64,000 nucleotides of DNA from a virus (IMGVR_UViG_3300033463_000075:1-64000); one strand, 5' to 3'. Shown: positions 48,535 to 64,000, numbered from the stretch's first letter. The notes: generated by a model not told the origin, from the sequence alone. Numbers and translations: made by a program.

Positions 48535-49257
48535 TTAGTAACTTCCTGAACTTATAGGTCCAATTAAGTTAGAATTATCTCTTAATCTGTCTCTTAATTC
48601 TTTTAGCTCTTCATTGCCCTCGGCAAGAAGTGCATCACCATCTTGCTCCCATTGAGCACCTGAATGTTTAAATCTTGATCTAATCCTGCCTTCCCAGATC
48701 TTTGCTGTTGCAACACACATTCTTGTTATAATATCAATCCAGTAATCACTTTCTACATCTTCAATAGTTGGTATCTTTGGAATATACTCAATAGTTACCA
48801 TTCCAGGGTTTGCCATATAGTTATTGATGTATAGCTTTTTTTCATGTGTATCTTCTATAAAAGACATATCTGTTGAAAGTGTATTTCTAATTTGGTTTAG
48901 TGTGCTCCAAGAAGCATAGTTTAAAATATACTCGCTTAGGTTATACATAGTTCCGCCAGAGCTAAATAATAATCATTGTTGAGCATAAGCAGGGTCAAGC
49001 AAGTCAGTGCCACCTGTAGAAGATCCTACAGCAGCTGTTCTATAAACCTTTACAACTGAGCTGCAATTAAAGTCTTTCAAGTCAATGCACTTAGCAAAAG
49101 GCACAGTAATGAACTTTGACTCATCCCAATAGCGGCCAACTTCTCTTAGCACTTGGTTTACAATAGCTTTATATTGAGCATCTTCTAAATCGCTTTCAAG
49201 CACACCGCCACCAGTAATTGCATTACGAGTTTCTTCTATTAAATCTTGTAGCTCCAT
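48535..49257 (-). CDS. neck/head-tail adaptor protein (T4 gp13-like), 240 aa with TGA=Trp
   Basis: Two ORFs fuse at TGA 48973; KIWEGRIRSRF...DGDALLAEGNEEL; late promoter at 49311. Confidence 0.7.
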
Positions 49258-49340: not shown

Positions 49341-49372
49341 AAAAAATAAAGCAACTTGCGCTGCTTTATTAA
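49341..49372 (-). terminator. intrinsic terminator ending the LRR/glycosylation operon
   Basis: AATAAAGCA/TGCTTTATT stem with tract. Confidence 0.65.
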
Positions 49373-49392: not shown

Positions 49393-50241
49393 TTATTTTA
49401 AGTTATTAGCATTTGGTATAACCATATGCAAATTATAAGCTTCATTAAATTCAATAATAGTATTAGCTATACTTGCAACTCACTCTTTGAAGCCTACATA
49501 AGTTTTTGGTAGCTCCACTCTACTGTAGAAAGGCCAATCTGTTCTATTTCTTGTGGTGAAGTGTCATACTTTAATAGAAGGGTCATCTCACATGTAGCCG
49601 CAGTTTTCTAAGTGGTTCATAGCTCCATAATGATAGTCTAAGTGAAGCTCTGGGTGCTTATTCCAATCTCTGTACCAGTAGTTTAAAACACTTTGATCAT
49701 GTCAAGAAACATTTGGGTTTAAGTCATCTATGTATCTAACTAAGTTATGTCCTAAATGAGGGTTTTCTTTAAAGTCTCATACAAACATACCTGAGCAAAA
49801 AATAGAAGCTCCCAAAGTATACTCAGTAATAAGTGGCTTTGGTGATCTATCTATAACTGCTGTCATGTGTGGCATATCCATAACTTCATCTATATTTTGC
49901 TTAATTCATTGGTCAGTGTCTAAATAAACTATCTTGTCAAACTTTTCCTCAACTTGTGTGTCAAATAAAGCTAGCTTAGGGAATGCACTTTTATATCAAG
50001 CTGTTAATCCACTTTCGTTAGTATTCTTGAGGGTACTTGTTGATAGTATAAAATTTGTATTAAGCTCTAATATGTTTATACCAACAGCTTGTAAAATCTG
50101 TCTTGTATTAGCATTAACATCTTTTGTTATGGCACAATAAATAGGGTACTTAGTTTTAGTATCCAATAGGTTTTTATACGCACCTAAAAGCATATAAATA
50201 TAATAGTCATTAGAGCTTAAGAAAAACATTCAAGCATTCAT
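49393..50241 (-). CDS. glycosyltransferase family 8 (282 aa, many TGA=Trp)
   Basis: YLDTD DxD motif, FCSGMFVW, WHDQSVLN, HF; open only with TGA=Trp. Confidence 0.85.
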
Positions 50242-50254
50242 ATTAAATTATACA

Positions 50255-51133
50255 TTAAAAATATAAATAATTAGTTTTATGAGCACCTGAAACTTGTATA
50301 CCAATTCTTGGCTTAGACTTAACAAATATCCTATCGTCGCTTGTTTTTGGAGGAGCCAGTGTTGGGTTAACTTTAACTTCAGGTATACTTCTTTGATAGT
50401 CTTCAATAAATTTATGAATATCTGTAGGCAGTTCTCCATGCTCTTTGATATATCTTAAGATAGCATGAGTATTGCTTACTAAGTGGTTTGTTCTAAGGCC
50501 TGGCTGTCTGTTTCAAGTAGAAGGCACAGGCTCATTTTTGTTTAGAAACTGCACATGAGTTATAGTTTCAGGAGGCATAAACTCGCAAGCAGCAAATTTA
50601 ACATGCAAATAATAAGCATATGTATGGTCTTCAAAAGCTTCGTTCTTTTGCGGATCTACATCAACATAAGGTGCTTTTTCAAATACGTACCTAGAAATTG
50701 CACATAAATTTAGCTGTGCAGCCTTATAATCATCAAATGTATAGTTCTTAATTCCTGAGTGAATAAAGCAGAAGCCATTTGGGTGAGCATCAATAGCTTT
50801 CATATAGTCATCTGCTGCAGTCTCTGCTGAGCATTCTATAATGGCATCATCATCAAAAGTAATTATATAATCATAGTCAAGATTTAAAAATTCCTCTCTT
50901 AAAGCTTTTCTTGCACCTAAAATTCCAAGCGGATTATATCTTTTAACTATTATTTTATTACTCACTTTTGGTACCTTTAGTCTGCCTCAGTTTTGAGCTA
51001 CTATTAAGATGTCAATATCTGGTCATAGCTCATTAAGTTGCTTAATAAGTCTATCTAATCTTGCTTTTCTTTCTTTTCTAGCTTGTTCTTCATCTGGAAG
51101 TCAGCTAATAATTCCAAAACATTTTTTTAACAT
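50255..51133 (-). CDS. GT-A fold glycosyltransferase (GT2-like), 292 aa with TGA=Trp
   Basis: ILIVAQNW, GILGAR, ITFDDD, FED. Confidence 0.7.
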
Positions 51134-51142
51134 TATATTCCT

Positions 51143-54007
51143 CTAAAAGTATAAGTAGTAGTTTGATTTATGAGCATTGTGTGTTTCAACTCTTATAGCT
51201 GGTTTTGATATATGTGTTATATTTGATATAGGTGCTAATGGAATGCACTTTGACTGTGCAGTTATTGTTGGCTTTTTGTGAATAATATTTTTAAGGTTTA
51301 TAAGTGGAAGTTCAAAGCCGCATTCATGCATTAAACTAATAACAGATTTATTAATTTCAGCATAGTACTCATCAATAATAGGTAAATCGCATCAATCTTG
51401 TAGATAAAATTTTGAAGCTATAAAAGGCATCTTAGTCTTTTCTCCTTGACCAGCTATATAGTGAATAACTTTTGGCCAGTTAGTTTTACGATTAGGGTTT
51501 ACATATTTAAATTTAGGACCAGTAGTCATAAGGCCGTATGTATAGTCAAGGTGCAATTCATTTTTTTCTTGTCAATTATTAAAATAGTAGTTTAATACAT
51601 TTTGATCATGTCATGCAATGTTGTCAGGTAATTTAGGAAGCAGCTTTAAAATTTTATTTGCATCATTAGTATTTTTAAAATCTCAGACAAATAGTCCACT
51701 ACAGAAGATAGAATCTCCAATAACATAAGGACCTGGCTTTCTATTTGGTAGTGGTGCACCATCAAGCACTGCACTCATATGCGGTTTATCAAAAAGCTCA
51801 TCTATGTTTGAATAAATGCCCAAGTCAGAATCTAGATAAACCATTTTATCAAGTTTAAGCTGATTCTTAAATAGGCCTAGCTTAGTAAAAGCTTTTACTC
51901 AATTTGATATTTTTTTAAGTGAAATACCATTTGGAATTATATTTTTTGTATCTAACTTAAAAGTAATTATGCCACAGGCATTTAAAATATCTATAGTATT
52001 TTGACTAACTTCATCAGTATAGCCGCAGCATACAGCATACTTTGTGCCATGTGTAAGAAGAGACTTATATACATTTAATACATAATAAATATAATTATCA
52101 GAGCTCAAAAAAAGCATTCATGCCTTCTTATTATTAGCTTGCCAATTTAATTTGTTAGCGTTAATAGTACTTAATGTTTTAGGTGTGCTATTTAAATTAG
52201 TAGATAAATAATTCATACTATTAGCAAGTAACTTAGAATAGCTAATATTAGGTGGATTAAGTATCTCTTTAGTTAGTACAAAAGTGCTATTATTAATATT
52301 TCTATCAGCTATTTTAAACATTGACTCCAAAGATTCAAAGCGTATGTTTCCGTTGTCTCTATTGCTTCAGTATATAAAAGGTTTATTAAAAATAATAGCA
52401 AATAGCACACCATGGAATGAGTCAGTTATCACAAGTGAACAGTCTCTAAATGATGCTAGCCAGTCTATAACATCAGTTTTGTTGTGTTGGAATACTGACA
52501 TATTTGTGTTTTTGCTTGTAGTGCTTATAAAACTATCTTTTTCTGATGTGGGCTGTAAAATATATTTAAATATGCTATTTGATTTCTTTTTGGGGATACC
52601 TTTACATAGTTCAAGATAGTCTGTTGCTGCTAAAAGCATTGTAGGGTCTAGCACTTGTGCAGCTTTTATACCAAAATGCTTTTGGCAGTCAGCTTTTGAT
52701 ATAGCTTCTCTTATAGACACGCCATTAAATTGTTGTAATAGACTAGCTAATTGCTTATCTTCCGTAGGTGTATATTGTCAGTTATCATTGCCTAAGCCAA
52801 AAGATGCTCCATATGAAAAGCGAACCTTATTTCAGCCAGCTGTAAAAGCTAAAAATGGATAGCTTATATAGTTATCCTTATAGTCATTAATACTTGTATT
52901 TTTTCTTCAGATTTGGTCGCTTCCAACTATAAAAATATCATAATCAGTAGCTTTTATAGTATTATAATCTGCCGCTGTAGGCAAAATATTCATTTTTATA
53001 TATTTGTCACAAAAGCTAAGTCTATCTGGTCTTCTTCATGTAATTATATCACAGTCATATCCAAGCTTATTAATTGTTTTTTGTAAAGCATATGCTTGCA
53101 ATGCTGTGCCTATATTAAAGTGTAAATTCATAGTGACAACAGCTACTTTTTTATTAGCTTTTAATAAGCTTTTATATGGCTCAGGTTGCACATTTAGCTT
53201 ATCTTGAATACCTTTATTATAAGGCTGTATAGCAGCTATACTTGTTTCAGATAATGCTAAGCTATTAATTTTAAATAGCAAGTCATTGCCAGAAGTTGTA
53301 TTAGCTATTATAAAGCTAACACCCTTTTTGTCATCAATTGTTGGAAAACTTTTTTTAACACCTCAAAAATCGCCAATAGTTAAGTCTGAAGCTATATTAG
53401 TTTTAGCTTTACAGTTATAACAGCTACTATTAAAATACTTTGCAGATAGGTATGTTTTTGAGTAGCTATTATTTAAGTGATTTTCCTCTAGCCTACTACC
53501 GTCAGTGTATGTTACTACATAATTATAGTTATTTCAGTCTGTATTAGCTTTACTACGCATGTTGATACTGCTTATTGTAGCGTTCTTTTTAGAAATACTA
53601 TTTAAATATTCTTTTCAAATAGAGACAGGTAAAGTGCCATAGCAAGCAATATTAATTGTTATTAGATTTGTATATGGTTTTTTTAAATAATATTTTAAAG
53701 CCATTATCTGACATGGTGTACCAGTATATAATACTAGTTTTCCTATATCTAAAAAATGTTTGCATTCTTCAAATGTGTGTTTATTATCAGCTTTAACATA
53801 TTTAGACCCCATTAATTTTGGTAAGTCAGCTAATTTATCTACGTAGCACATATCTACAAGCCAATCTTTATTTCAAGCAGCTCCAAAAACAATACCATTA
53901 TTTTGCAGTATATATTCTGCAATAGCATAAAAAACACCACCAGAAGAGCTCATTGTTCTGATTGCATCATTTTTATTTATAGCTAAATATGTCTTATCCT
54001 TTTCCAT
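51143..54007 (-). CDS. 954-aa fusion: FrhB-like (F420 hydrogenase beta C-terminal) + polysaccharide pyruvyltransferase + GT8
   Basis: SSSGG, GSKY, GTPCQ, SDLTIGDFWG; NIGTALQAYAL, GSDQIW, SIRE, VLDPT, DSFHG; YLDSD, WHDQ; six track ORFs share one frame. Confidence 0.85.
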
Positions 54008-54019
54008 TTTATATTCCCC

Positions 54020-54694
54020 TTAATCTAATTTTGCATCTATAAATTTTCCGTCTTCTACCTTGCCTTTTTGCCATTTGCCATATTTATTTTTATATAGGCC
54101 AAATGTTTCAAAAGTGAAAAAAAGTAGGTCTGAACAGTCATCAAAAGTAGCTTTTACATTATTTAGCAGTTTTATTTGACTATCACTCGCAAACTTAACA
54201 CCCAATAAACCAGAGCAGTATTCAAAAGCTGTCGGGTGTATAAAGTTCATATCTGGCCCAAATGTTATTGATAGCAGGTCTTTGCAGCCCTTAAAAGTAA
54301 AATCACGTAGCCTTGTGCAGCCATCAGGTATTATTATCTTTAATAGTCCTGTATGAGCAAAAGCATACATACCAATATCAACTGCCTTTCCATCTGTGTC
54401 TTCACTAAAGAAAAATCTTCTTAAGCTTTTGCAGCCACTAAAAGCCATAACAGCTATTTTGTGTAGCGTCTTAGTGTTAGATAAGTTGACATCAGTTAAT
54501 CTTGTGCAGTCTTTAAAGGCTCTGGCACCTATCCATTCAAGCTTAGATCCTGCCTCTAATGATATTTCCTCTATATTAGTGTTGTTATTAAATGCTTCTA
54601 ATTCTATAGCTTCAACCTCAGCTGGTATAACAACCTTAGTCTCAATACCATTATAAGCATATAATATGTTGTCTCTTATATCAAAATCACGCAT
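54020..54694 (-). CDS. BspA-type LRR (LRR_5) protein a
   Basis: IGxxAFxxCxxL repeats; shared N-cap and C-cap; no TGA. Confidence 0.9.
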   Translation of the reverse strand: MRDFDIRDNILYAYNGIETKVVIPAEVEAIELEAFNNNTNIEEISLEAGSKLEWIGARAFKDCTRLTDVNLSNTKTLHKIAVMAFSGCKSLRRFFFSEDTDGKAVDIGMYAFAHTGLLKIIIPDGCTRLRDFTFKGCKDLLSITFGPDMNFIHPTAFEYCSGLLGVKFASDSQIKLLNNVKATFDDCSDLLFFTFETFGLYKNKYGKWQKGKVEDGKFIDAKLD

Positions 54695-54707
54695 TAGTTA
54701 TATTCCT

Positions 54708-55388
54708 TTACCAATCTGGTGTATAGTTATCTGGTAGCTTATCAAGTATCCATGTATCATGAGCATATTCTTTAACAAGCTGTATATTTCCAAATCTTAA
54801 GTATCTTATGTTTGGACATCCTTTTAGTCAGTCTAAGTTTTTATCAAGTAGTTTTATATTCTCTCTGCTCTTAAAAGCTATTAGTTGAAGCTCTTTACAG
54901 TCAATAAAAGCTGTATCATCAATGTAGTCTATTTCAGGACCTAGATATACATTTTTAAGCTTTCTACAATAAGCAAATGTAGTAGTCTTAATTGTATGGC
55001 AATTATCTGGTAAAACTATTTCTTCTAATTTAGAGCAATTTATAAAAGCACCAAGTCCAAGGTCTAGCTCTTCTTTAGGTGGGTTTGTAGAAAAATAAAT
55101 ACGTTTTAAGTCACAGCAATTATTGAAAGCATACATGCTAATATGTGTTAGAGGTGCATGCTCAAGATATATTTTTTCAACATTTAAGCAGTTAGCAAAA
55201 GCATCTGTACATATTTTTCAAAGCTTAGAGTTTGGCTCAATATCTACACTATGTATTTGTATGCAGTCTTTAAATGCATTTTGTGCAATTACTTCGGTTT
55301 TTGCTGGAATATAAACACCATGATTTTTGCTTTTATAGTGTAGTATCATTGTGCCATTATTTAATGTGTCAAAATCTGTATTAGACAT
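54708..55388 (-). CDS. BspA-type LRR protein b (226 aa, TGA=Trp)
   Basis: In-frame extension of track ORF 54828-55136. Confidence 0.85.
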
Positions 55389-55391
55389 TTA

Positions 55392-56054
55392 TTACCTCAC
55401 ACTAAAATTACCTTTTTCATCTCGCTTAGCATAAAACCATTTGTTTTCAGCCGGGTTTCTAATAAGCCCAAATGTAGCAAATGTAATAAAGTCTGGTTTA
55501 GCTGAGCCCAATATTCTAGCAGGGTTTTCAAATAATCTTACTGCATCATCACTCGCAAACATGATATACTTTAAGTTATCACAGCCATTAAAAACATCGT
55601 CATCAAATTCAATGTTGTCAGTGGCATCAAATATAGCTGTCACTAAGTCTTTGCAGTCTTTAAATAATTCATGCGGAATCTTAGTAACTTTTTCTGGTAT
55701 TCTAATATTTATTAACCCAGTCTCCCAAAATACATTTGGTTTTAATGTAGCTAATGTTGGTGGTAGTGTCATAGTTTCTAATTTTTCGCAACCTGCAAAA
55801 GCACAACCATCTATATAAGAAAGCTTAGTTTCATGTAAATGCACAAATCTTTCCAAGTTCTTACAGTCTGAAAAAGCTCTTATATCAATTTCTTCTAAGC
55901 CCTCTGGCAAGATTACTTGTTTTATATAATTATTTTGCTCAAAAGCTGACTGACCAATTCTTACAACATTGGCAGGTATTACTACAGTAGGGTCTTTGCC
56001 ATTATACTTAAATAGTGTTCCATCTAATGTTATTCTAAATTTTTGTTCTGCCAT
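55392..56054 (-). CDS. BspA-type LRR protein c
   Basis: LRR_5 repeats; no TGA. Confidence 0.9.
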   Translation of the reverse strand: MAEQKFRITLDGTLFKYNGKDPTVVIPANVVRIGQSAFEQNNYIKQVILPEGLEEIDIRAFSDCKNLERFVHLHETKLSYIDGCAFAGCEKLETMTLPPTLATLKPNVFWETGLINIRIPEKVTKIPHELFKDCKDLVTAIFDATDNIEFDDDVFNGCDNLKYIMFASDDAVRLFENPARILGSAKPDFITFATFGLIRNPAENKWFYAKRDEKGNFSVR

Positions 56055-56057
56055 TTA

Positions 56058-57131
56058 TTAAAACCTCATAATCTTTCAAGGATCTTTGTCTGTTGTGTTA
56101 TATAGTTTCTTATTAGACTGATCTGGTCTAAAGAAGCCAAATGTTTCAAAAGTAATTTCATTTAACATTCTGCAGCCCTTAAATAAGTCAGTAGCTTGCT
56201 CTATTATATCTACTTGAGCATCTTTTGTAAATACTAATTTAGTTAGATCAAAACAGTTTGCAAAAGCTGCATCTGCAATATAGTCTACCTTATCTGGTAT
56301 CACTATACTTTTTAATCTTGTGCAGTATTCAAAAGCATGCTCTTTAATATCAGTTAATACACTGCCTGCTTCAATAAATACTCCTGTTAAGGCAAGGCAA
56401 TTCTTAAATGCTCTTTCACCAATAGTGTCAACAGATTGTGGTATAATTATTGACTTTAATTCAAAACAGTCTCTAAATGCGCTATTGTCTATAAATGTTA
56501 ATGTATCAGGTAGCTTTACATCTGTTAGATGACGACTTTCTAAAAATGCTGCAATACCTAAGCTTTCTATAGGGCTGTTTATAACTACTTTTTCAGCTCT
56601 GCAATGTTGGCATAGTCTTGGTGGAAAATCTGTTATATCAGCATTTATTGTTAAGCACTTTGTTTTTAAGTGGTCAAATGCTTGTCCCCCAATAGCAGCT
56701 ACACTATCAGGTATAAGCACATCTTCTGTAAAGGCTGTTCATTTAAAAGCTTCATTACCAATTTTAATTAAGTCAGGTCCAGCATTAAACTTACCCAAGC
56801 TGGCACATTGATAGAAAGCACTATTGCCAACATCAACTAATTCTTTTGGTAGGCCTTCGATTTTTAAGCTCTTACAGCCATAGAATGCATCTTCAAGTAT
56901 ATGTATAACGCTATCTCAATTTTTAATTGTTGTTAAGTTCTCACAACCCTTAAAAGCATTTTCTCCAACTGTTGTTACATGATTGCCAAAGTCTACGCTT
57001 TTAATTGTAGTATTAGGATAAAAAGCACCATTGGCTATTATCTTAACTTCATCAGGTAAAATAATATCCGTGTCTGTGCCTTTATAATCTATTAAGGCTC
57101 CATTTAATATTTCAAAATCTGTATTAGTCAT
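56058..57131 (-). CDS. BspA-type LRR protein d (357 aa, TGA=Trp)
   Basis: Track ORFs 56916-57131 and 56076-56720 join in frame. Confidence 0.85.
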
Positions 57132-58366
57132 TATCTTGAAACCTCTTGTGTATCTTTAATAGTTATATTTCTGCCATCAAATACACCAATTGTATCGGAG
57201 TACCTATTGCCAGAGTTATTATATTCAACTGCTTTTATGCCATCATAACCAAGATTTTTAGCTATATCTCTGAAAGCATTTGAGCGTAAAATAGTGTATA
57301 CATATAAGTCTTTTTTGCCTTTTACCATTTCAGCTGCAGCATCACTTACTAGCTTTTTAGTTTCAGCTAAGCTAATATCAAGCTTACTTATTACTTTTAG
57401 AAAAGCCTCTGAATAATCATTGCCTACAAATACCTTGTAAGAGCTATCACCTACATCTAAAAGTTTTAGCTTCTTTATATTGCAAGTATATAAATAGCCT
57501 TTGTCAGAGTCGCCTAAAGCATAAGACTTAGCATATAGCTTATCATCTGTTAGCCAAACTGTATGGTTATTGTTAGCAAAGCTTTCTTTATATTTGCTAC
57601 TGCCATTATAATATACAGGTCCGTCTAGAGCAGCTCCAATACCTGGAATAGTAGATAAATCTAAAGCTTCATCTACATCTTCTTTTATTGGAATGACTTT
57701 TCAAGTGCCAGTACGGTTTGATAAAGCAAAAGTCTTAAATCTTATCATATATAATTTATTACAGCCCTTAAAAATTTTTTCTGGTTGTGCCACTAAGCCT
57801 ATTTGTTTGTCTGACTCAAAGCGAACTACACCAAGGTTTTCGCAGCCTTCAAAAGCATCTGACCAAATGCTGTCAACATCAGCCGGAATATGAATGGCTT
57901 CAAGTTGCTTACAATTCGCAAACATTTTAGCATCTATTATATGACAATTTTCTGGCCAATCAAAGAACTTAATACCGGTGCCTGCAAAAGCAGCTTTCAT
58001 GATACATCTGGGTGTATCATGATATTGTCAGTCCCATTTTATAGTAGATAACTTTTCACAGCCCTCAAAAGCAGAATAACCAATATTAACAGTATTAGGT
58101 CTTAGGTATACAGCTGCTAAATTAGGCATCTCATTACAAGAAAGTTCATTAATTTGTTCTGTATATTTAAAGTCTATTCTCTTTATCTTCTCTTTTCTGC
58201 TAAAACAGCCTGTTTCAATAGTTGAAATTGTATCAGGAACATATACAGAAGCTGTAGGTAAATCTTGTGAGCCATCTCAACCAATGGCTCTATCTTTGCC
58301 ATTAATGCCCGTCCCTTTACTTATTACTCATGGCCCTAAGTTAATAGTTTTACCTACGTTGCTCAT
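57131..58366 (-). CDS. BspA-type LRR protein e fused to a C-terminal ADP-ribosyltransferase-like (ART-PolyVal-like) domain (411 aa)
   Basis: In frame through TGAs; C-domain VYYNGS...VWLTDDKLYAKSYA...YLYTCNI...LGYDGIKAVE...TIGVFD. Confidence 0.7.
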
Positions 58367-59307
58367 TAATTATCCACCTTTATTCATCTCTTTAATAAGC
58401 TATCTTTTACTAACATAAAATCTGGGAACTCAAGTATTCTAAGACTTGGACATTCTGTAAAGATTTTATCAACTCTATCCAATAGCTTTATTTGTGTATT
58501 ATCCTTAAATACAACATGCTCTAAACTCTTGCAGCAATTAAAGGCATCTTCACCAATTATTTCTACTTTAGCTGGAATAACAATAGCTTTTATTTTCTCA
58601 CAGTTGCAGAAAGCATTTGCACCTATTATTTTTAGTTCTGACTTATTTGCATCATCTATCTTGAAGTAAGTCATATTAAAACAGTTCATAAAAGCACCTG
58701 GGTATAACATTGTAGCTGTATTTGGCAAGTCTATATGGTCTAAGTTTTTGCAGTTAAAGAAAGCGTTAATACCAATTGTTTTTAATGTTTTTGGTAGGTG
58801 TATTGTTTCCATAACTGAGCAGTCATAGAAAGCATTTGCTCCAATATATTCTACAGTAGACCCAGTTAAATTAAATTCGTCTATGCGTTTACAGTCATAA
58901 AAGCAGCCCGATGGCACCGAAGAACAACTTGCTTCAAAATCAACTGAAGTAAATGTTAAGCATTTTGCAAAAGCACTTTGCCCAATTGATTTTACAGTTT
59001 TTGGTATAACTTGGTTATAAGGTGATGAGTTATCCACATCAATAAGTTCTAGTTTTTTACAACCATAAAAAGCATTATCTCCAATTAGGTCAACAGTCTT
59101 TGGTATTACACAGACTTTTAGCTTATCGCAGTCATAAAAAGCTGAGCTACCAATTGTTCTTAAGCCATCAGGCAAAATTGCATGCTGTACCTCTGTGCCA
59201 GTAAAAGCATCATAGCCAATAGCTTCAATATCAGCTGGAACTCTGACAAGAGTAACATCTCTGTCAGCTTTTTCATATATCTTTTTTTGAGTGTCTATTT
59301 GTGGCAT
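58366..59307 (-). CDS. BspA-type LRR protein f (313 aa)
   Basis: LRR_5 repeats; terminal LLKRWIKVDN uses TGA. Confidence 0.9.
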
Positions 59308-60227
59308 TATTTATCTACCTTTACCCATTTTCTTAATATTAAATCTTTTTTTAGTGCGAAGCTTGGAAAATCTATTTCAGCTAATTTTTCACAGCCAAAA
59401 AATATCTTATCACATTCACTTAATATATTTATATTTCTGTCATCACCAAAAGATACTCTTTCAAGATTATGACAATTCATAAATGCGCCTCTTCTTATTT
59501 CAGCAATATTTTTAGGGAAGTTAACTTCTGTTAAAGCATTACAACCAGCAAAAGCATATTCACAAATAGCTAACCCTCCACTATTATCGTCACCCATAAA
59601 TTCCAGCGTATGTAAGCTTCTGCAACCATTAAAAACACTTGTGCCAATATAGTTAACCTTTGCTGGAATAGTTATATGTGTTAAGGATTCGCAGTCAAGA
59701 AAAGCTTGACTATAAATTCTGATTAAATTATTTGGTAAGTTAATAGCCTTTAGGTTTTTGCAGTTGTGAAATGCAAAGCCACTAATAGTTTCAGCATTAA
59801 AAAGCTCAACATCATTTAAGCTTACACAACCTTCTCAACAGCTACTTGGCACAGTTTGAATATTAGCTTCACACCAAACATTTGTTAAGCTTTGACATTC
59901 TCTAAAAGCATTATCACCAATCTTTTCTACTGAGTCAGGAATAATGCCTGTATAGTTTAATTTTGTGCAGCCATAGAAAGCACTATTCCCAATTTTTGTT
60001 AGCTCATGTCTTGTGCCCAATGTTATGCCAGTTAAATTTTCGCAGTGATGAAAGCAATCGTCTTCTAGCTCTTTTACACAAGTTGGCAGCTTTACAAACT
60101 TAATTCAGCTCTGACCCTCAAAACAGTCTGAAATTATTTCAGCAGGTTCATTCACCATATTTACTTCTGTTGCTTGGCCTGAGTAAGATACTAATTTATG
60201 GTCTTTGTCTGTTATTGTAAAATTCAT
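59307..60227 (-). CDS. BspA-type LRR protein g (306 aa, TGA=Trp)
   Basis: Two track ORFs join in frame. Confidence 0.85.
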
Positions 60228-61072
60228 TAGTTAAATATAGTCTCCCATTTCTTTTCGTCTGCTTCTTTTCTAGCATAAGCATGCCACTTGTCATCATCTT
60301 CTTTAACAAAAGCTTTAGATGGAAACGCTAATCTATGCAAGCTGTTACATCCACCAAAAATGTCATTAACTCTATATAATATTTTCATTTGGTCATCTGA
60401 CATAAATTCGACTTCAGTTAATCTTGTGCAATTCTCAAAAGCTCTAGTTGCAATACTATCTACTTTTGCAGGTATTTGTATTCAGTATAAGTCGCTACAG
60501 TTAGCAAAAGCACTACCACCAATATGTTCCAGTGTTTCAGGAAGGCCCACACGGTTTAACTTCTTACAGCCATAAAAAGCTCCAAGTCCAATTGATGTTA
60601 TAGGGCTATTTCTTAGGCCAGCAGTTGTTAAATTAGGGCAGTTCATAAATGTTTGAGACTGTATGACAGACACATTACCTAAATTGTATATATTTTTAAT
60701 GCCAGACTTATTGAAAGCATCTCCACCAATAGTCTGTAAAATTTGTGGAAAATCTAAAGATATTTCAAGCTTAGTGCAGTTTCTAAATGCATGAGGCCCA
60801 ATAGTTTCAAGATAGTCTGGAAAATGAACGTCAAATAAGTTCGTGCAAAGCTCAAAAGATTGTCTATCTATCTCTGTCATATCATTAGGCAAACAGATTG
60901 ATTGTACTTTCTTACCTTTGAATACATCAGTATTTATAGCAAGTACGTCATCTGGCACATCTACTTGGTAGTCCCATGCATGTTGTTCAAAATTTGGATA
61001 AACTTTAAACAATGTATGACTATCATTTATCATATATGTATAATGTGTGCTTCTAACGGCGCGATCTGACAT
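60227..61072 (-). CDS. BspA-type LRR protein h (281 aa, TGA=Trp)
   Basis: Read-through to TAA at 60227; late promoter at 61104. Confidence 0.85.
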
Positions 61073-61187
61073 CTTTAATTATCTCCAAAAAGTTGTTGCT
61101 ATATAATTTAGCTTAAAATACTGCTCACACCATAAAAAATATGAGCCTAAAATTAGCTCATATTATTATCAAAATTTTAAGTATGTA

Positions 61188-62138
61188 TTAGTCTTTTTTA
61201 TTAAATACTCATTTACCAAAAGACTTTTCAAAAGAGCCTGATGGGAATTCAAATTTATTAAGTGAGTCACAGTTAACAAATATCTTATTAGCATCATTTA
61301 GCCTATCTTTTAACTTATCTGAGCTAAATTTGACAGTTGTTAAACTACTGCAGCTATTAAAAGCATTGTCCTCAATTCTCATATTTCAAGCATCTGTCAA
61401 GAAAGTAATATTGTGAAGGTCAATACAATTTTCAAAAGCACCTTCTTCAATAATATACGTTTCTTTTGGTAATGTAAGGCTAGTTAAACTTACACAACTT
61501 TTAAATGCTTTCTTACAAACTACTGAAAGATTTCTTGGCATAGATATATATGATAGCGCACTACAGCAATTAAAACAGTTGTCTCCTATAAATATTAGTG
61601 AATCTGGCAAGTATACATTTTCTAAGCTTGTGCACATAAAGAAAGTCCAACTTGGTAAGTCACCATCATCGGGCTTGCCCATTCAAACAACACTTTTTAA
61701 GCTTAAGCAGTGGCTAAATATACTATGCTCTATATCAGTAACCTTTTGATGCACAACAATGCTTTGTAATGACTTGCAACCTTTAAAAGCTTTTGCTCCT
61801 ATTGTTGTTAATTTATTTGGTAAATGATTTTCAAGTATGTTTTTGCTAGGCATTGCATGGTGTATATAGTTTAATGATTCGCAGTCTTCAAAAGCGCTTT
61901 CTCCAATAACTGTTCAGTTACCATCTTTAACATATCTAACTACCTTCAAATTTTTGCAGCCAGTAAAAGCACCTCTACCAACACTATGCACTGAAGCAGG
62001 AATAAATACAGCTTCTATAGTATAGTTATCTTTGAAGGCCATATCAACAACATCTATTACACCATCTGGTATGACAACATCTTTTTCGTTGCCAGTATAT
62101 TTAAGTAATGCATTATTTGATATAACAAAATCACTCAT
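61188..62138 (-). CDS. BspA-type LRR protein i (316 aa, TGA=Trp)
   Basis: Track ORFs join in frame; ends TAA at 61188. Confidence 0.85.
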
Positions 62139-62148
62139 CTATAACTCC

Positions 62149-63072
62149 TTACTTTTTATATGCTTCTCATTGATTAGTGCCTGGCACTCTATGAAAAGCA
62201 TGCCTTGGAAAATCTATTTTAGCTAATTTTTCACAGCCATTAAATATTTCAACAGTATTAGCAAGCATTGACATTTGTGCATCTGAGCCAAAGCTTACAC
62301 TAACTAAGTTTTTACAGTTAGCAAAAGCATTTTTTTCAATAACTTGTACTGAAGCAGGTATATGTATATCTATCAAGTTTGTTTTAGCAAAAGCCTCTGT
62401 GCCTATCGCCTCAAGAACAGAATCAGCTTCAAAATTAAGCCTTGTTAGGTCTTTACACTCAAAGAAACTACAAATGCCTATAACTCCAGTTGCTTTTGGT
62501 ATTGTAAGCTCTACAAGACCACTATTCTTAAATGCTTCGCTGTCAATTACTCTAAGTGCATTTGGTAGCTTGATAGTTTTTAACGCCCCACAGTACTGAA
62601 AAGCATTACGCCCTATCTCATCCATTTTATCTGGTAAATCTACAGCTTTTAATTGCTCACAAAAGCTAAAAGTATATGTAGGCAATACTGTTAGTTGTGT
62701 TTCGCTAAGGTCAGCATGTTTAAGTTCTGAGCAGTAATGAAAAACTTGATCACCTAAGCTATTTATTGTGCTAGGCATAATCATATATTGTAATTTACTA
62801 CATTGTTGGAAAGCGCCTGTACCTATCGTAGTCACACCAGTTCTTAATATAGCTCTTTGTAAGTTTGAAGCAAAAGCAAATGCAAAGCGACCTATATCAG
62901 TGCCATTATAATAAGTATCAAAATATTTGATGTCAAGATTATTTTTCAAAGCATCATCAGCTACTCCTGTGCAGCCGCGAGGTAGTGAAAGTCTACCAGT
63001 TGGGCTCTTATAATAAGTTAGCTTACCACTACTATTTAATCTTATAACTTCAGCTGGTTGTGTGTTAGGCAT
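62149..63072 (-). CDS. BspA-type LRR protein j (307 aa)
   Basis: LRR_5 repeats; terminal NQWEAYKK uses TGA; late promoter at 63099. Confidence 0.9.
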
Positions 63073-63170
63073 TTTAGCTCTCCTTTTAAGCGATCGTATA
63101 ATTTAGCTTATGAATATGCAAGTATAAAACAAAATCTGGGCTCGTTATAAGCCCATTTTCAAGCATAAAT

Positions 63171-63200
63171 AAAAAAAGCAGCCAAATGTATAACTGCTTT
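63171..63200 (-). terminator. intrinsic terminator
   Basis: AAAGCAG/CTGCTTT stem with A-tract. Confidence 0.6.
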
Positions 63201-63223
63201 TCTGATAATCATATATTGAGCTA

Positions 63224-63999
63224 TTATTTATTCCATACATAGGTAGCTTGTCCACAGTCATAGACTTCAACAAAGTTATGTGTTAGCATTAGCTCCTCAT
63301 TGCTTGTGCCTGTGCCATAACAACCAAATGTTTTTCCAAGCAAGGCATCAAATCCACGCTTAAATAAAAGCTTGTCTGTAATATGGTCTTGTAATTTAAT
63401 ATTATACCAATGTCTACCTATAGCTCTACTAATTTTCTTAAAGTCAAGGTTAATATAAATATTGCCTTCAAACTTGCTGAGATCACAGTAGCTTACTATT
63501 GAATCTGGATTATAATTTTCAACAAAGTAGTTAAATAGCTTTTCGCTGCCACCAACTACTATAGCACTTCCACAAAGTCTAATCAATTCCCATTGATATT
63601 TTTTGCTGTAACGTGGCTTGCCAAATGTCATAAGCATAACTATTTCATCATTATAAATAAGAGCCAGTGCAACATCAGATTTTGTATATCCTTGAAAATG
63701 GTATTTATTTAAATAGTCAGCCTCAGCTTGTGCACTAATAAGCTTTATTGTGCACTTTCTAGCACCTATAACTGGTTTTTTCTTCAAGAATGTATTTATA
63801 ATTTTATCTTGGTCATCCCAGTCCCAAATATGAATACACTGATAGCCATTTCTAACTGCAATATCTGTTTTATCAGCATGATAATATTTATCAATTCCAT
63901 GGTCTTTGCACCAAGGGCTCCAAGTAGCATTATGTGTAGCAGTAGGGTCTATCTCAATTAAAAAGTTTTCGACTTTAAAATCGTAATAGCGGCCTTCAA
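63224..63999 (-). CDS. homing endonuclease-like protein (5'-truncated by window edge)
   Basis: YDFKV...IEIDP...IHIWDWD nuclease domain followed by YLNKYHFQG...WELIRLC...SYCDL domain. Confidence 0.65.
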   Translation of the reverse strand, partial: EGRYYDFKVENFLIEIDPTATHNATWSPWCKDHGIDKYYHADKTDIAVRNGYQCIHIWDWDDQDKIINTFLKKKPVIGARKCTIKLISAQAEADYLNKYHFQGYTKSDVALALIYNDEIVMLMTFGKPRYSKKYQWELIRLCGSAIVVGGSEKLFNYFVENYNPDSIVSYCDLSKFEGNIYINLDFKKISRAIGRHWYNIKLQDHITDKLLFKRGFDALLGKTFGCYGTGTSNEELMLTHNFVEVYDCGQATYVWNK

Positions 64000-64000
64000 G

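Follow-up and report, generated by a model that had tools for sequence, protein, structure and literature searches.

Ten divergent BspA-type leucine-rich repeat genes in an exchanged cassette between the capsid and head-tail adaptor genes of an uncultured jumbo phage

Proteins with BspA-type leucine-rich repeats (LRRs) also form multigene families in Trichomonas and Tannerella (PMC2843621). Branched systems of multiple receptor-binding proteins (RBPs) have been described for the phages RaK2/phiK64-1 (PMC10253068) and phiKp24 (PMC9700779), and a model of anchors, branching domains and docking peptides is available for Klebsiella phages (PMC6872550, PMC13352976). Here we analysed a viral stretch of 64,000 nucleotides (nt; IMGVR_UViG_3300033463_000075:1-64000, in the following called the window), which carries an array of ten consecutive head-to-tail open reading frames (ORFs) on the minus strand (54020-63072), each encoding an LRR protein of 220-411 amino acids (aa) under translation table 4. 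Comparison with the closest relative showed that the ten LRR genes and the first of the glycan-enzyme genes behind them are swapped wholesale as a cassette behind a conserved promoter, between flanks that are 85-90% identical. We tentatively read the LRR proteins as binders that would be displayed on the virion.

With the BspA/TpLRR-type proteins of known structure (6mlx, 4cp6 and the 4fs7, 4fdw and 4h09 entries of the Joint Center for Structural Genomics, JCSG) the array proteins have the repeat family, the fold and the N-terminal L..Y.G....V.IP start in common. They differ by being short, single-domain and phage-encoded, by a private C-terminal cap (C-cap) and by partly reading TGA as tryptophan (Trp). 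Moreover, they have no signal peptide, lipobox, type IX secretion system (T9SS) or Ig-like anchor. As export signal and anchor are both missing, the array proteins are not BspA-like surface adhesins in the defining sense.

The ten LRR genes and their proteins

The source record is an 82-kb IMG/VR fragment with a completeness estimate of 41%, and the host genome of the array is that of an uncultured gut/rumen jumbo phage of ~200 kb in which TGA is read as Trp. The head module is T4-type, with a terminase, a gp20-like portal, a Peptidase_S77 prohead protease and a gp23-like capsid protein. A capsid-protein scan gave 64 related loci with 42-90% identity, complete genomes of 201-233 kb among them, which make up a jumbo-myovirus clade.

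All ten proteins pass the Pfam LRR_5 model (PF13306, BspA-type; gathering score 27.7 bits) with 80-317 bits and E-values from 1.8e-22 to 9.6e-96. From the first gene of the array to the last, these are P0010 (62149-63072; 307 aa; LRR_5 E 9.6e-96; cap 68.9 bits), P0009 (61188-62138; 316 aa; four TGA codons; E 1e-50), P0008 (60227-61072; 281 aa; E 4e-45), P0007 (59307-60227; 306 aa; E 2.9e-53), P0006 (58366-59307; 313 aa; E 2e-70), P0005 (57131-58366; 411 aa; E 1.8e-22), P0004 (56058-57131; 357 aa; E 2.9e-61), P0003 (55392-56054; 220 aa; no TGA; E 3.6e-42), P0002 (54708-55388; 226 aa; E 2e-27) and P0001 (54020-54694; 224 aa; no TGA; E 3.3e-26). The 25 LRR_5 matches of the 82-kb record all fall inside 54-63 kb. 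According to the ORF coordinates, four array junctions overlap by 1 nt, five have gaps of 3-13 nt and one has a gap of 115 nt. The paralogues are only 22-37% identical to each other.

Eight of the ten genes break at TGA under table 11, and all are intact under table 4. Across the array there are 18 in-frame TGA codons against 16 TGG codons, and the stop codon is TAA in every gene. In recoded phages, families such as this one are hidden by standard-code annotation. None of the ten proteins has an N-terminal hydrophobic segment (Kyte-Doolittle 12-residue mean of at most 1.46 in the first 40 aa) or a non-LRR Pfam domain above the cut-off, and their isoelectric points range from 4.9 to 6.9. An earlier note on this DNA, made from the sequence alone, had described ten divergent head-to-tail LRR genes of 220-411 aa, eight of which need TGA read-through and none of which encodes a signal peptide or anchor; all of this is borne out here.

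An AlphaFold2 (AF2) model of P0001, with the paralogue alignment as input, reached a predicted local distance difference test score (pLDDT) of 94.3. It consists of an N-terminal hairpin, about seven LRR strands, a helix at residues 171-184, one further LRR strand and a terminal beta-hairpin. The best PDB matches found by Foldseek are Treponema TpLRR 6mlx (E 2e-07) and pneumococcal PcpA 4cp6 (template modelling score, TM, 0.65), and gut-bacterial LRR proteins from structural genomics were matched too. The F..C..L units are spaced 23-27 aa in the array proteins, which are thus LRR_5 members by sequence and, as modelled, by fold, with a predicted solenoid.

The earlier note had also pointed to shared caps at both ends, of which the C-cap holds up as a feature private to this lineage. 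The mean column identity is 47% in the C-cap (A2) against 27% overall. The whole C-cap, with its SDxQIxLL helix and its hairpin carrying a conserved Trp, was detected only in the ten array proteins, in P0012 from a close relative and in two LRR genes of the related locus L004; it was found in 0 of 119 other database homologues and in 0 of 150 giant LRR representatives. An exhaustive search with the C-cap profile was dominated by giant multi-repeat LRR proteins that match profile positions 2-45, because this first part of the profile looks like ordinary LRR units. The N-terminal cap, on the other hand, falls away as a special feature, since its motif is generic to LRR_5 and present in 106 of 120 database homologues.

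P0005 is the only paralogue that continues beyond the cap. Its LRR and cap occupy residues 1-225 and are followed by an extra domain of 186 aa (57131-57691). This tail has a sub-threshold match to ART-PolyVal (PF18760; 19.7 bits, E 0.0015, gathering score 31.2), and its protein-language-model neighbours in the Atlas are ART-PolyVal/AcrIF11 clusters (score 0.89), which is a lead only. The genome-wise profile search gave no ART-PolyVal match for the tail, no homologues were detected among near-length or shorter proteins, PDB sequences or phages (tblastn), and the AF2 model of the tail is too poor for use (pLDDT <50).

Exchange of the cassette at the capsid-adaptor junction

Downstream of the capsid gene, the gene order is HNH endonuclease, LRR array, three glycan-enzyme genes, head-tail adaptor and then sheath, tube and baseplate. 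The closest relative, L004, has a capsid protein that is 90% identical and a 292-aa glycosyltransferase that is 88% identical. It is collinear with the window genome down to 64690 (87.7% nt identity). A 126-nt block (63199-63074; L004 14676-14800) is again 89.7% nt identical while both sides of it differ, and this block is the promoter and 5' untranslated region of the first LRR gene. After the block there is no nt similarity until 51216, where 85% identity resumes. Since similarity is lost from the array through 51216 between conserved flanks, the LRR genes and the first glycan enzyme were exchanged together. That enzyme is a single ORF of 954 aa (51143-54007, minus strand; 15 TGA codons), an FrhB/FdhB-like, polysaccharide pyruvyltransferase and GT8-like fusion (PF04230 E 5.5e-34, PF04432 E 2.3e-22), which starts 12 nt past the end of the array; down to about 51216 it is part of the swapped cassette. 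L004 instead has two cap-bearing LRR genes, whose products are 33-34% identical to any array protein, a 216-aa ORF and a GT2+Stealth enzyme, which occupies the position of the pyruvyltransferase fusion.

The full exchange of LRR and glycan content within conserved flanks and behind a conserved promoter is a clean natural experiment, which points to the cassette as a determinant of specificity with a turnover like that of an arms race. The glycan-enzyme linkage, the position in a capsid-adaptor hotspot and the cassette swap were newly seen here, beyond what the earlier note had described.

The conserved region upstream of the array (63074-63199, minus strand) contains terminator-like hairpins at 63172-63203 and 63137-63155, AAGCTAAATTATA at 63097-63109 and an AAGGAG ribosome site. 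In a second promoter region (61102-61164, minus strand) a terminator-like hairpin (61138-61164) is followed by the motif at 61102-61114. The identical AAGCTAAATTATA thus lies 33-39 nt before the starts at 63072 and 61072, each time after a terminator-like hairpin. Unit 1 comprises P0010 and P0009. Unit 2 runs from P0008 to P0001 and on through the three glycan genes, with the next terminator-like hairpin only at 49345-49370.

The core motif GCTAAATTWWW occurs ten times in the window (3541-63107, minus strand), where 2.8 hits would be expected. Every hit is on the coding strand, and ten were reached in 0 of 100 shuffles. Its positions include 63097, 61102, 49309, 42707, 32780 and 23585. It is located 30-60 nt upstream of structural genes and precedes the prohead protease, HNH, adaptor and sheath genes as well as both LRR units. 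It is also found in L003 and relatives, in the latter upstream of LRR-containing operons, and is a clade-wide promoter-like motif. The early-looking genes at 1243-1899 have sigma-70-like promoters (TTTACA...TATAAT) instead. The two promoter units proposed earlier are supported by the repeated motif and hairpin, and from the motifs we infer that both units are transcribed late.

The number of LRR genes differs among relatives, with ten here, two in L004 and one extra paralogue in L077, where a P0006-like gene (50% identical) sits between the P0006 and P0005 orthologues. Closer relatives on short ENA contigs (88% nt identity) keep the orders P0009-P0008-P0007 and P0007-P0006. The array is therefore not invariant in size or content.

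Repeats at the DNA level between 53500 and 63500 are degenerate motif matches only (60-77%), which together with the low protein identity indicates that the LRR copies are old and that their diversification is not of the diversity-generating retroelement (DGR) or shufflon type. Both types were rejected, as no long near-identical direct or inverted repeats were found in this interval.

Ratios of nonsynonymous to synonymous substitution (omega, Nei-Gojobori) were calculated for orthologue pairs. Omega is 0.08 for P0008 (L078 orthologue, 95% identical), 0.08 for P0007 (over 103 codons), and 0.21 for P0009 (L078 orthologue, 79% identical). P0006 was covered in two segments, with values of 0.42 (L076 orthologue, 78% identical) and 0.12. 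Pooled omega is 0.34 at predicted concave-face sites against 0.17 elsewhere, with amino acid differences at 22% against 14% of sites (Fisher p 0.034, small sample). Positive selection was rejected, because no gene or site class has omega >1. By these ratios the LRR genes are clearly maintained under uneven constraint, and the concave binding face of the predicted solenoid appears relaxed or diversifying. Selection is thus purifying yet far from uniform (0.08-0.42), and the old, maintained diversification claimed in the earlier note agrees with the paralogue identities, the omega values, the cassette exchange and the differences in gene number.

On one side of the array lies the capsid gene (about 64790-66109 in G000), on the other the head-tail adaptor gene. 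In most relatives the adaptor gene follows within about 130 bp of the capsid gene, and others carry an insert of 1-15.5 kb (L004, L015, L016, L018, L024, L040, L058, L063 and L066). These inserts contain GT2, GT8, Stealth, GT92-like and pyruvyltransferase genes, homing endonucleases and a DNA methylase. L024 has in the same slot a 1507-aa protein and a YadA_head/Peptidase_S74 fibre protein. The capsid-adaptor junction is an insertion hotspot across the clade, and judging by the genes gathered there it may be a variable locus for glycosylation or decoration of the virion.

Neighbouring genes and LRR_5 genes of the relatives

The two glycosyltransferase genes behind the fusion (49393-51133, minus strand; 292 aa and a 282-aa GT8; PF01501 E 1.6e-07, phrog_2456), which lie ahead of the 49345-49370 hairpin, form the conserved right flank of the cassette with 88-89% aa identity in L004. 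They are followed by the head-tail adaptor-like gene (48535-49257, minus strand; phrog_211 E 1.6e-07), which has its own GCTAAATTAAT motif. On the other side of the array, an HNH/homing endonuclease gene (63224-64000, minus strand, continuing to 64675 outside the window; phrog_3339/phrog_559 E 1e-45 to 1e-54; DUF7487) is a variable occupant between capsid gene and array. Other genes are found there in L004, which carries a NUMOD3/HTH endonuclease-like gene at the HNH position. Two DUF7487/HNH homing-endonuclease-like genes flank the head genes (window 63224-64000; L003 224-1675 and 10093-11130), one of them directly after the capsid gene, an arrangement reminiscent of the seg genes around T4 gene 23.

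Two complete genomes of the clade have no LRR_5 genes at all, and at the other extreme are arrays >20 kb long. G004 encodes two LRR proteins (843 and 960 aa) in an operon with a collagen-repeat protein first and a GT2 last. In G008 a GT2_4 gene, whose start is overlapped by an LRR gene of 409 aa, is followed by a UDP-glucose dehydrogenase gene. The records contain few GT2 genes (1-2 per 76-105 kb), but every LRR block has one next to it. In G006, G007, G011 and G012 the LRR_5 repeats are part of proteins of 1000-2500 aa, some with Flg_new, YadA_head or CotH. These giant LRR_5 proteins adjoin genes with Mtd_N, YadA_head, Peptidase_G2 chaperone and Ig-like domains, which are usual domains of fibres and RBPs. 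L074-L075 (G012:138000-167800), where TGA is not recoded, has a block of >20 kb with giant LRR_5 proteins (2472, 1003, 831, 622 aa and others) beside an Mtd_N-like gene.

TGA use is mixed inside the capsid-protein clade, with some members reading TGA as Trp and others apparently not. TGA is a sense codon in many genes of the window, L004, L018, L027 and L040, and almost none is found in the same structural genes of L029, L036 and L059. The recoding thus seems to have been gained or lost within the clade. TGA density is also very uneven inside the window genome, from 0 in the capsid, sheath and protease genes to 15 in the 954 codons of the glycan fusion.

Homologues of the array proteins were found in only 20 of 50,697 records of a phage collection, all of them uncultured and either unannotated or labelled hypothetical, and no cultured phage in it has a close homologue. 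Megablast of the array against phage records gave no match, and literature searches for BspA or LRR_5 in phages returned nothing relevant and no paper describing the array. P0006 as query returned only an unrelated 1062-aa LRR protein (L002), a single metagenome scan with P0008 only unrelated contigs with 54% GC, and the 954-aa fusion no related loci.

Possible roles and comparison with known systems

The earlier note had proposed a panel of LRR binders with a constant cap that acts either inside the cell or on the virion. The diversified repertoire itself is strengthened by the finding of a bounded, exchanged cassette, and between the two sites the clade context favours the virion. We therefore regard virion-displayed binder modules, co-swapped with glycan enzymes, as the leading explanation, although a tentative one. 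Late in infection, the LRR proteins would be synthesised in the cytoplasm and would join the virion during its assembly (on capsid, neck or fibres) by way of the conserved cap or another constant surface. Each would present a different concave face, serving as an adhesin or as an accessory module for receptor binding. The LRR proteins, or the virion surface that carries them, would be the substrates of the co-swapped glycosyltransferases. A swapped or expanded cassette would then alter what the particle adheres to, be it host cell-surface glycans or proteins or the gut or rumen matrix. This explanation is favoured by the structural-type promoters, the head-neck position, the fibre gene in the slot of L024, the fibre and RBP neighbourhoods of LRR genes in relatives, the linkage to glycosyltransferases and the missing export signals, as a protein without a signal peptide can only leave the cell on the virion or by lysis.

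Several points weigh against display on the virion. The array lies outside the tail-fibre module. Most LRR solenoids occur as monomers, and known phage RBPs are trimers. The conserved C-cap can be explained as a structural end-cap without any docking role, because a solenoid must be capped, and its positions 1-45 look like a pair of ordinary LRR units. No such cap is present in the giant LRR proteins of the relatives, which may be unrelated in role, and the substrate of the glycan enzymes could be the host envelope instead of the virion. Lastly, the tail of P0005 is a possible ADP-ribosyltransferase domain, which would suit an intracellular target better.

This last point leads to binders that work inside the host, each sequestering or marking a different host protein that is a defence or takeover target, made late or packaged and ejected with the DNA, with P0005 armed with an enzyme like T4 Alt or the polyvalent-protein effectors. 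Ten proteins without signal peptide or anchor would be expected of such a panel, and accessory cargo with fast turnover is also seen in anti-defence islands. The likeness to T4 Alt and to the ART-PolyVal/AcrIF11 effectors concerns P0005 only, a late protein that may combine an ADP-ribosyltransferase domain with a targeting module; the weak profile match and the Atlas neighbours point that way, but the match is below the Pfam cut-off and absent from the genome-wise search, the model is unusable and the other nine paralogues lack the domain. A route into the core like that of the T4-type packaged internal proteins (IPs, Alt) is possible in principle given the Peptidase_S77 prohead protease, yet the LRR fold of the P0001 model starts at residue 4, which leaves no obvious room for an N-terminal capsid-targeting propeptide. 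The structural-type promoters differ from the sigma-70-like early promoters at 1243-1899, and the recurrent linkage to glycosyltransferases and fibre-type genes would be left unexplained. On balance we consider intracellular or ejected binders unlikely, but to be taken seriously.

The same linkage is central to a view of the LRR proteins as partners of the glycan pathway, in which they would be acceptors, scaffolds or specificity subunits of the co-swapped enzymes and no parts of the virion, the enzymes remodelling host envelope polysaccharide late in infection and, for example, masking receptors on debris. In unit 2 a mere 12 nt separate the eight LRR genes from the glycan genes and the first terminator-like site comes at 49345-49370, the joint exchange includes the first enzyme, and relatives have LRR and glycosyltransferase genes side by side at two further loci. 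It is hard to see, however, why three enzymes should need ten binders, the adjacency possibly reflects just shared residence in the hotspot, and we know of no precedent for LRR_5 subunits of glycosyltransferases, so that this role is improbable in our view. More improbable by far is a cargo without specific adaptive role, that is, LRR genes acquired from gut bacteria which undergo duplication and drift where a hotspot permits it. Outside phages, the closest homologues are indeed generic LRR_5 proteins of gut bacteria (roughly 25-35% identity), and the hotspot gathers homing endonucleases too. Against drift stand ten intact frames with strong coupling and their own promoters, orthologue omega values that are not neutral, and a private cap that is kept in L004 and across paralogues as divergent as these.

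If the LRR proteins are on the virion, the LRR solenoid joins the known phage recognition folds and is linked to virion glycosylation; if they act inside the cell, they represent a ten-member panel of host-protein binders. In both cases they belong to a family, LRR_5, that is abundant and almost uncharacterised in gut and rumen microbiomes. The most far-reaching form of the virion-display explanation is a new phage host-recognition apparatus, in which interchangeable monomeric LRR solenoids take the place of trimeric fibres or spikes and are docked by the private C-cap, encoded in a promoter-bounded cassette that is exchanged with the glycan enzymes dressing them, and diversified by duplication and exchange in a phage with a recoded stop codon. 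We consider it unlikely that all of these parts hold together, but the prospect is to be taken seriously. In its logic such an apparatus would be like the LRR-based recognition repertoires of the lamprey variable lymphocyte receptors (VLRs) and of the plant nucleotide-binding LRR receptors (NLRs).

Among phage systems, the Hoc protein of T4 is a dispensable capsid decoration with a variable outward binding part and a conserved C-terminal capsid-binding part, and in mycobacteriophages phage glycosyltransferases reportedly glycosylate the virion (Freeman et al. 2023, mentioned in PMC11256854). The LRR locus resembles both, with non-essential variable genes near the capsid gene and glycosyltransferase genes in the structural region, whereas Hoc is a single gene with Ig-like domains.

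The nearest functional analogue, by analogy of gene organisation, would be the tandem, anchor-sharing multi-RBP arrays of jumbo phages (RaK2, phiK64-1, phiKp24 and CBA120 type). As in the LRR array, tandem late genes combine divergent binding modules with a constant module, the content varies between relatives, and the presumed role is to widen or shift what the particle recognises. The multi-RBP arrays encode trimeric beta-helix depolymerases or fibres with an N-terminal anchor, lie in the tail module and have a virion location shown experimentally. The LRR array has solenoids with a C-terminal constant part, a locus between the capsid and adaptor genes and a linkage to glycosyltransferases, and the place of its proteins on the virion is putative.

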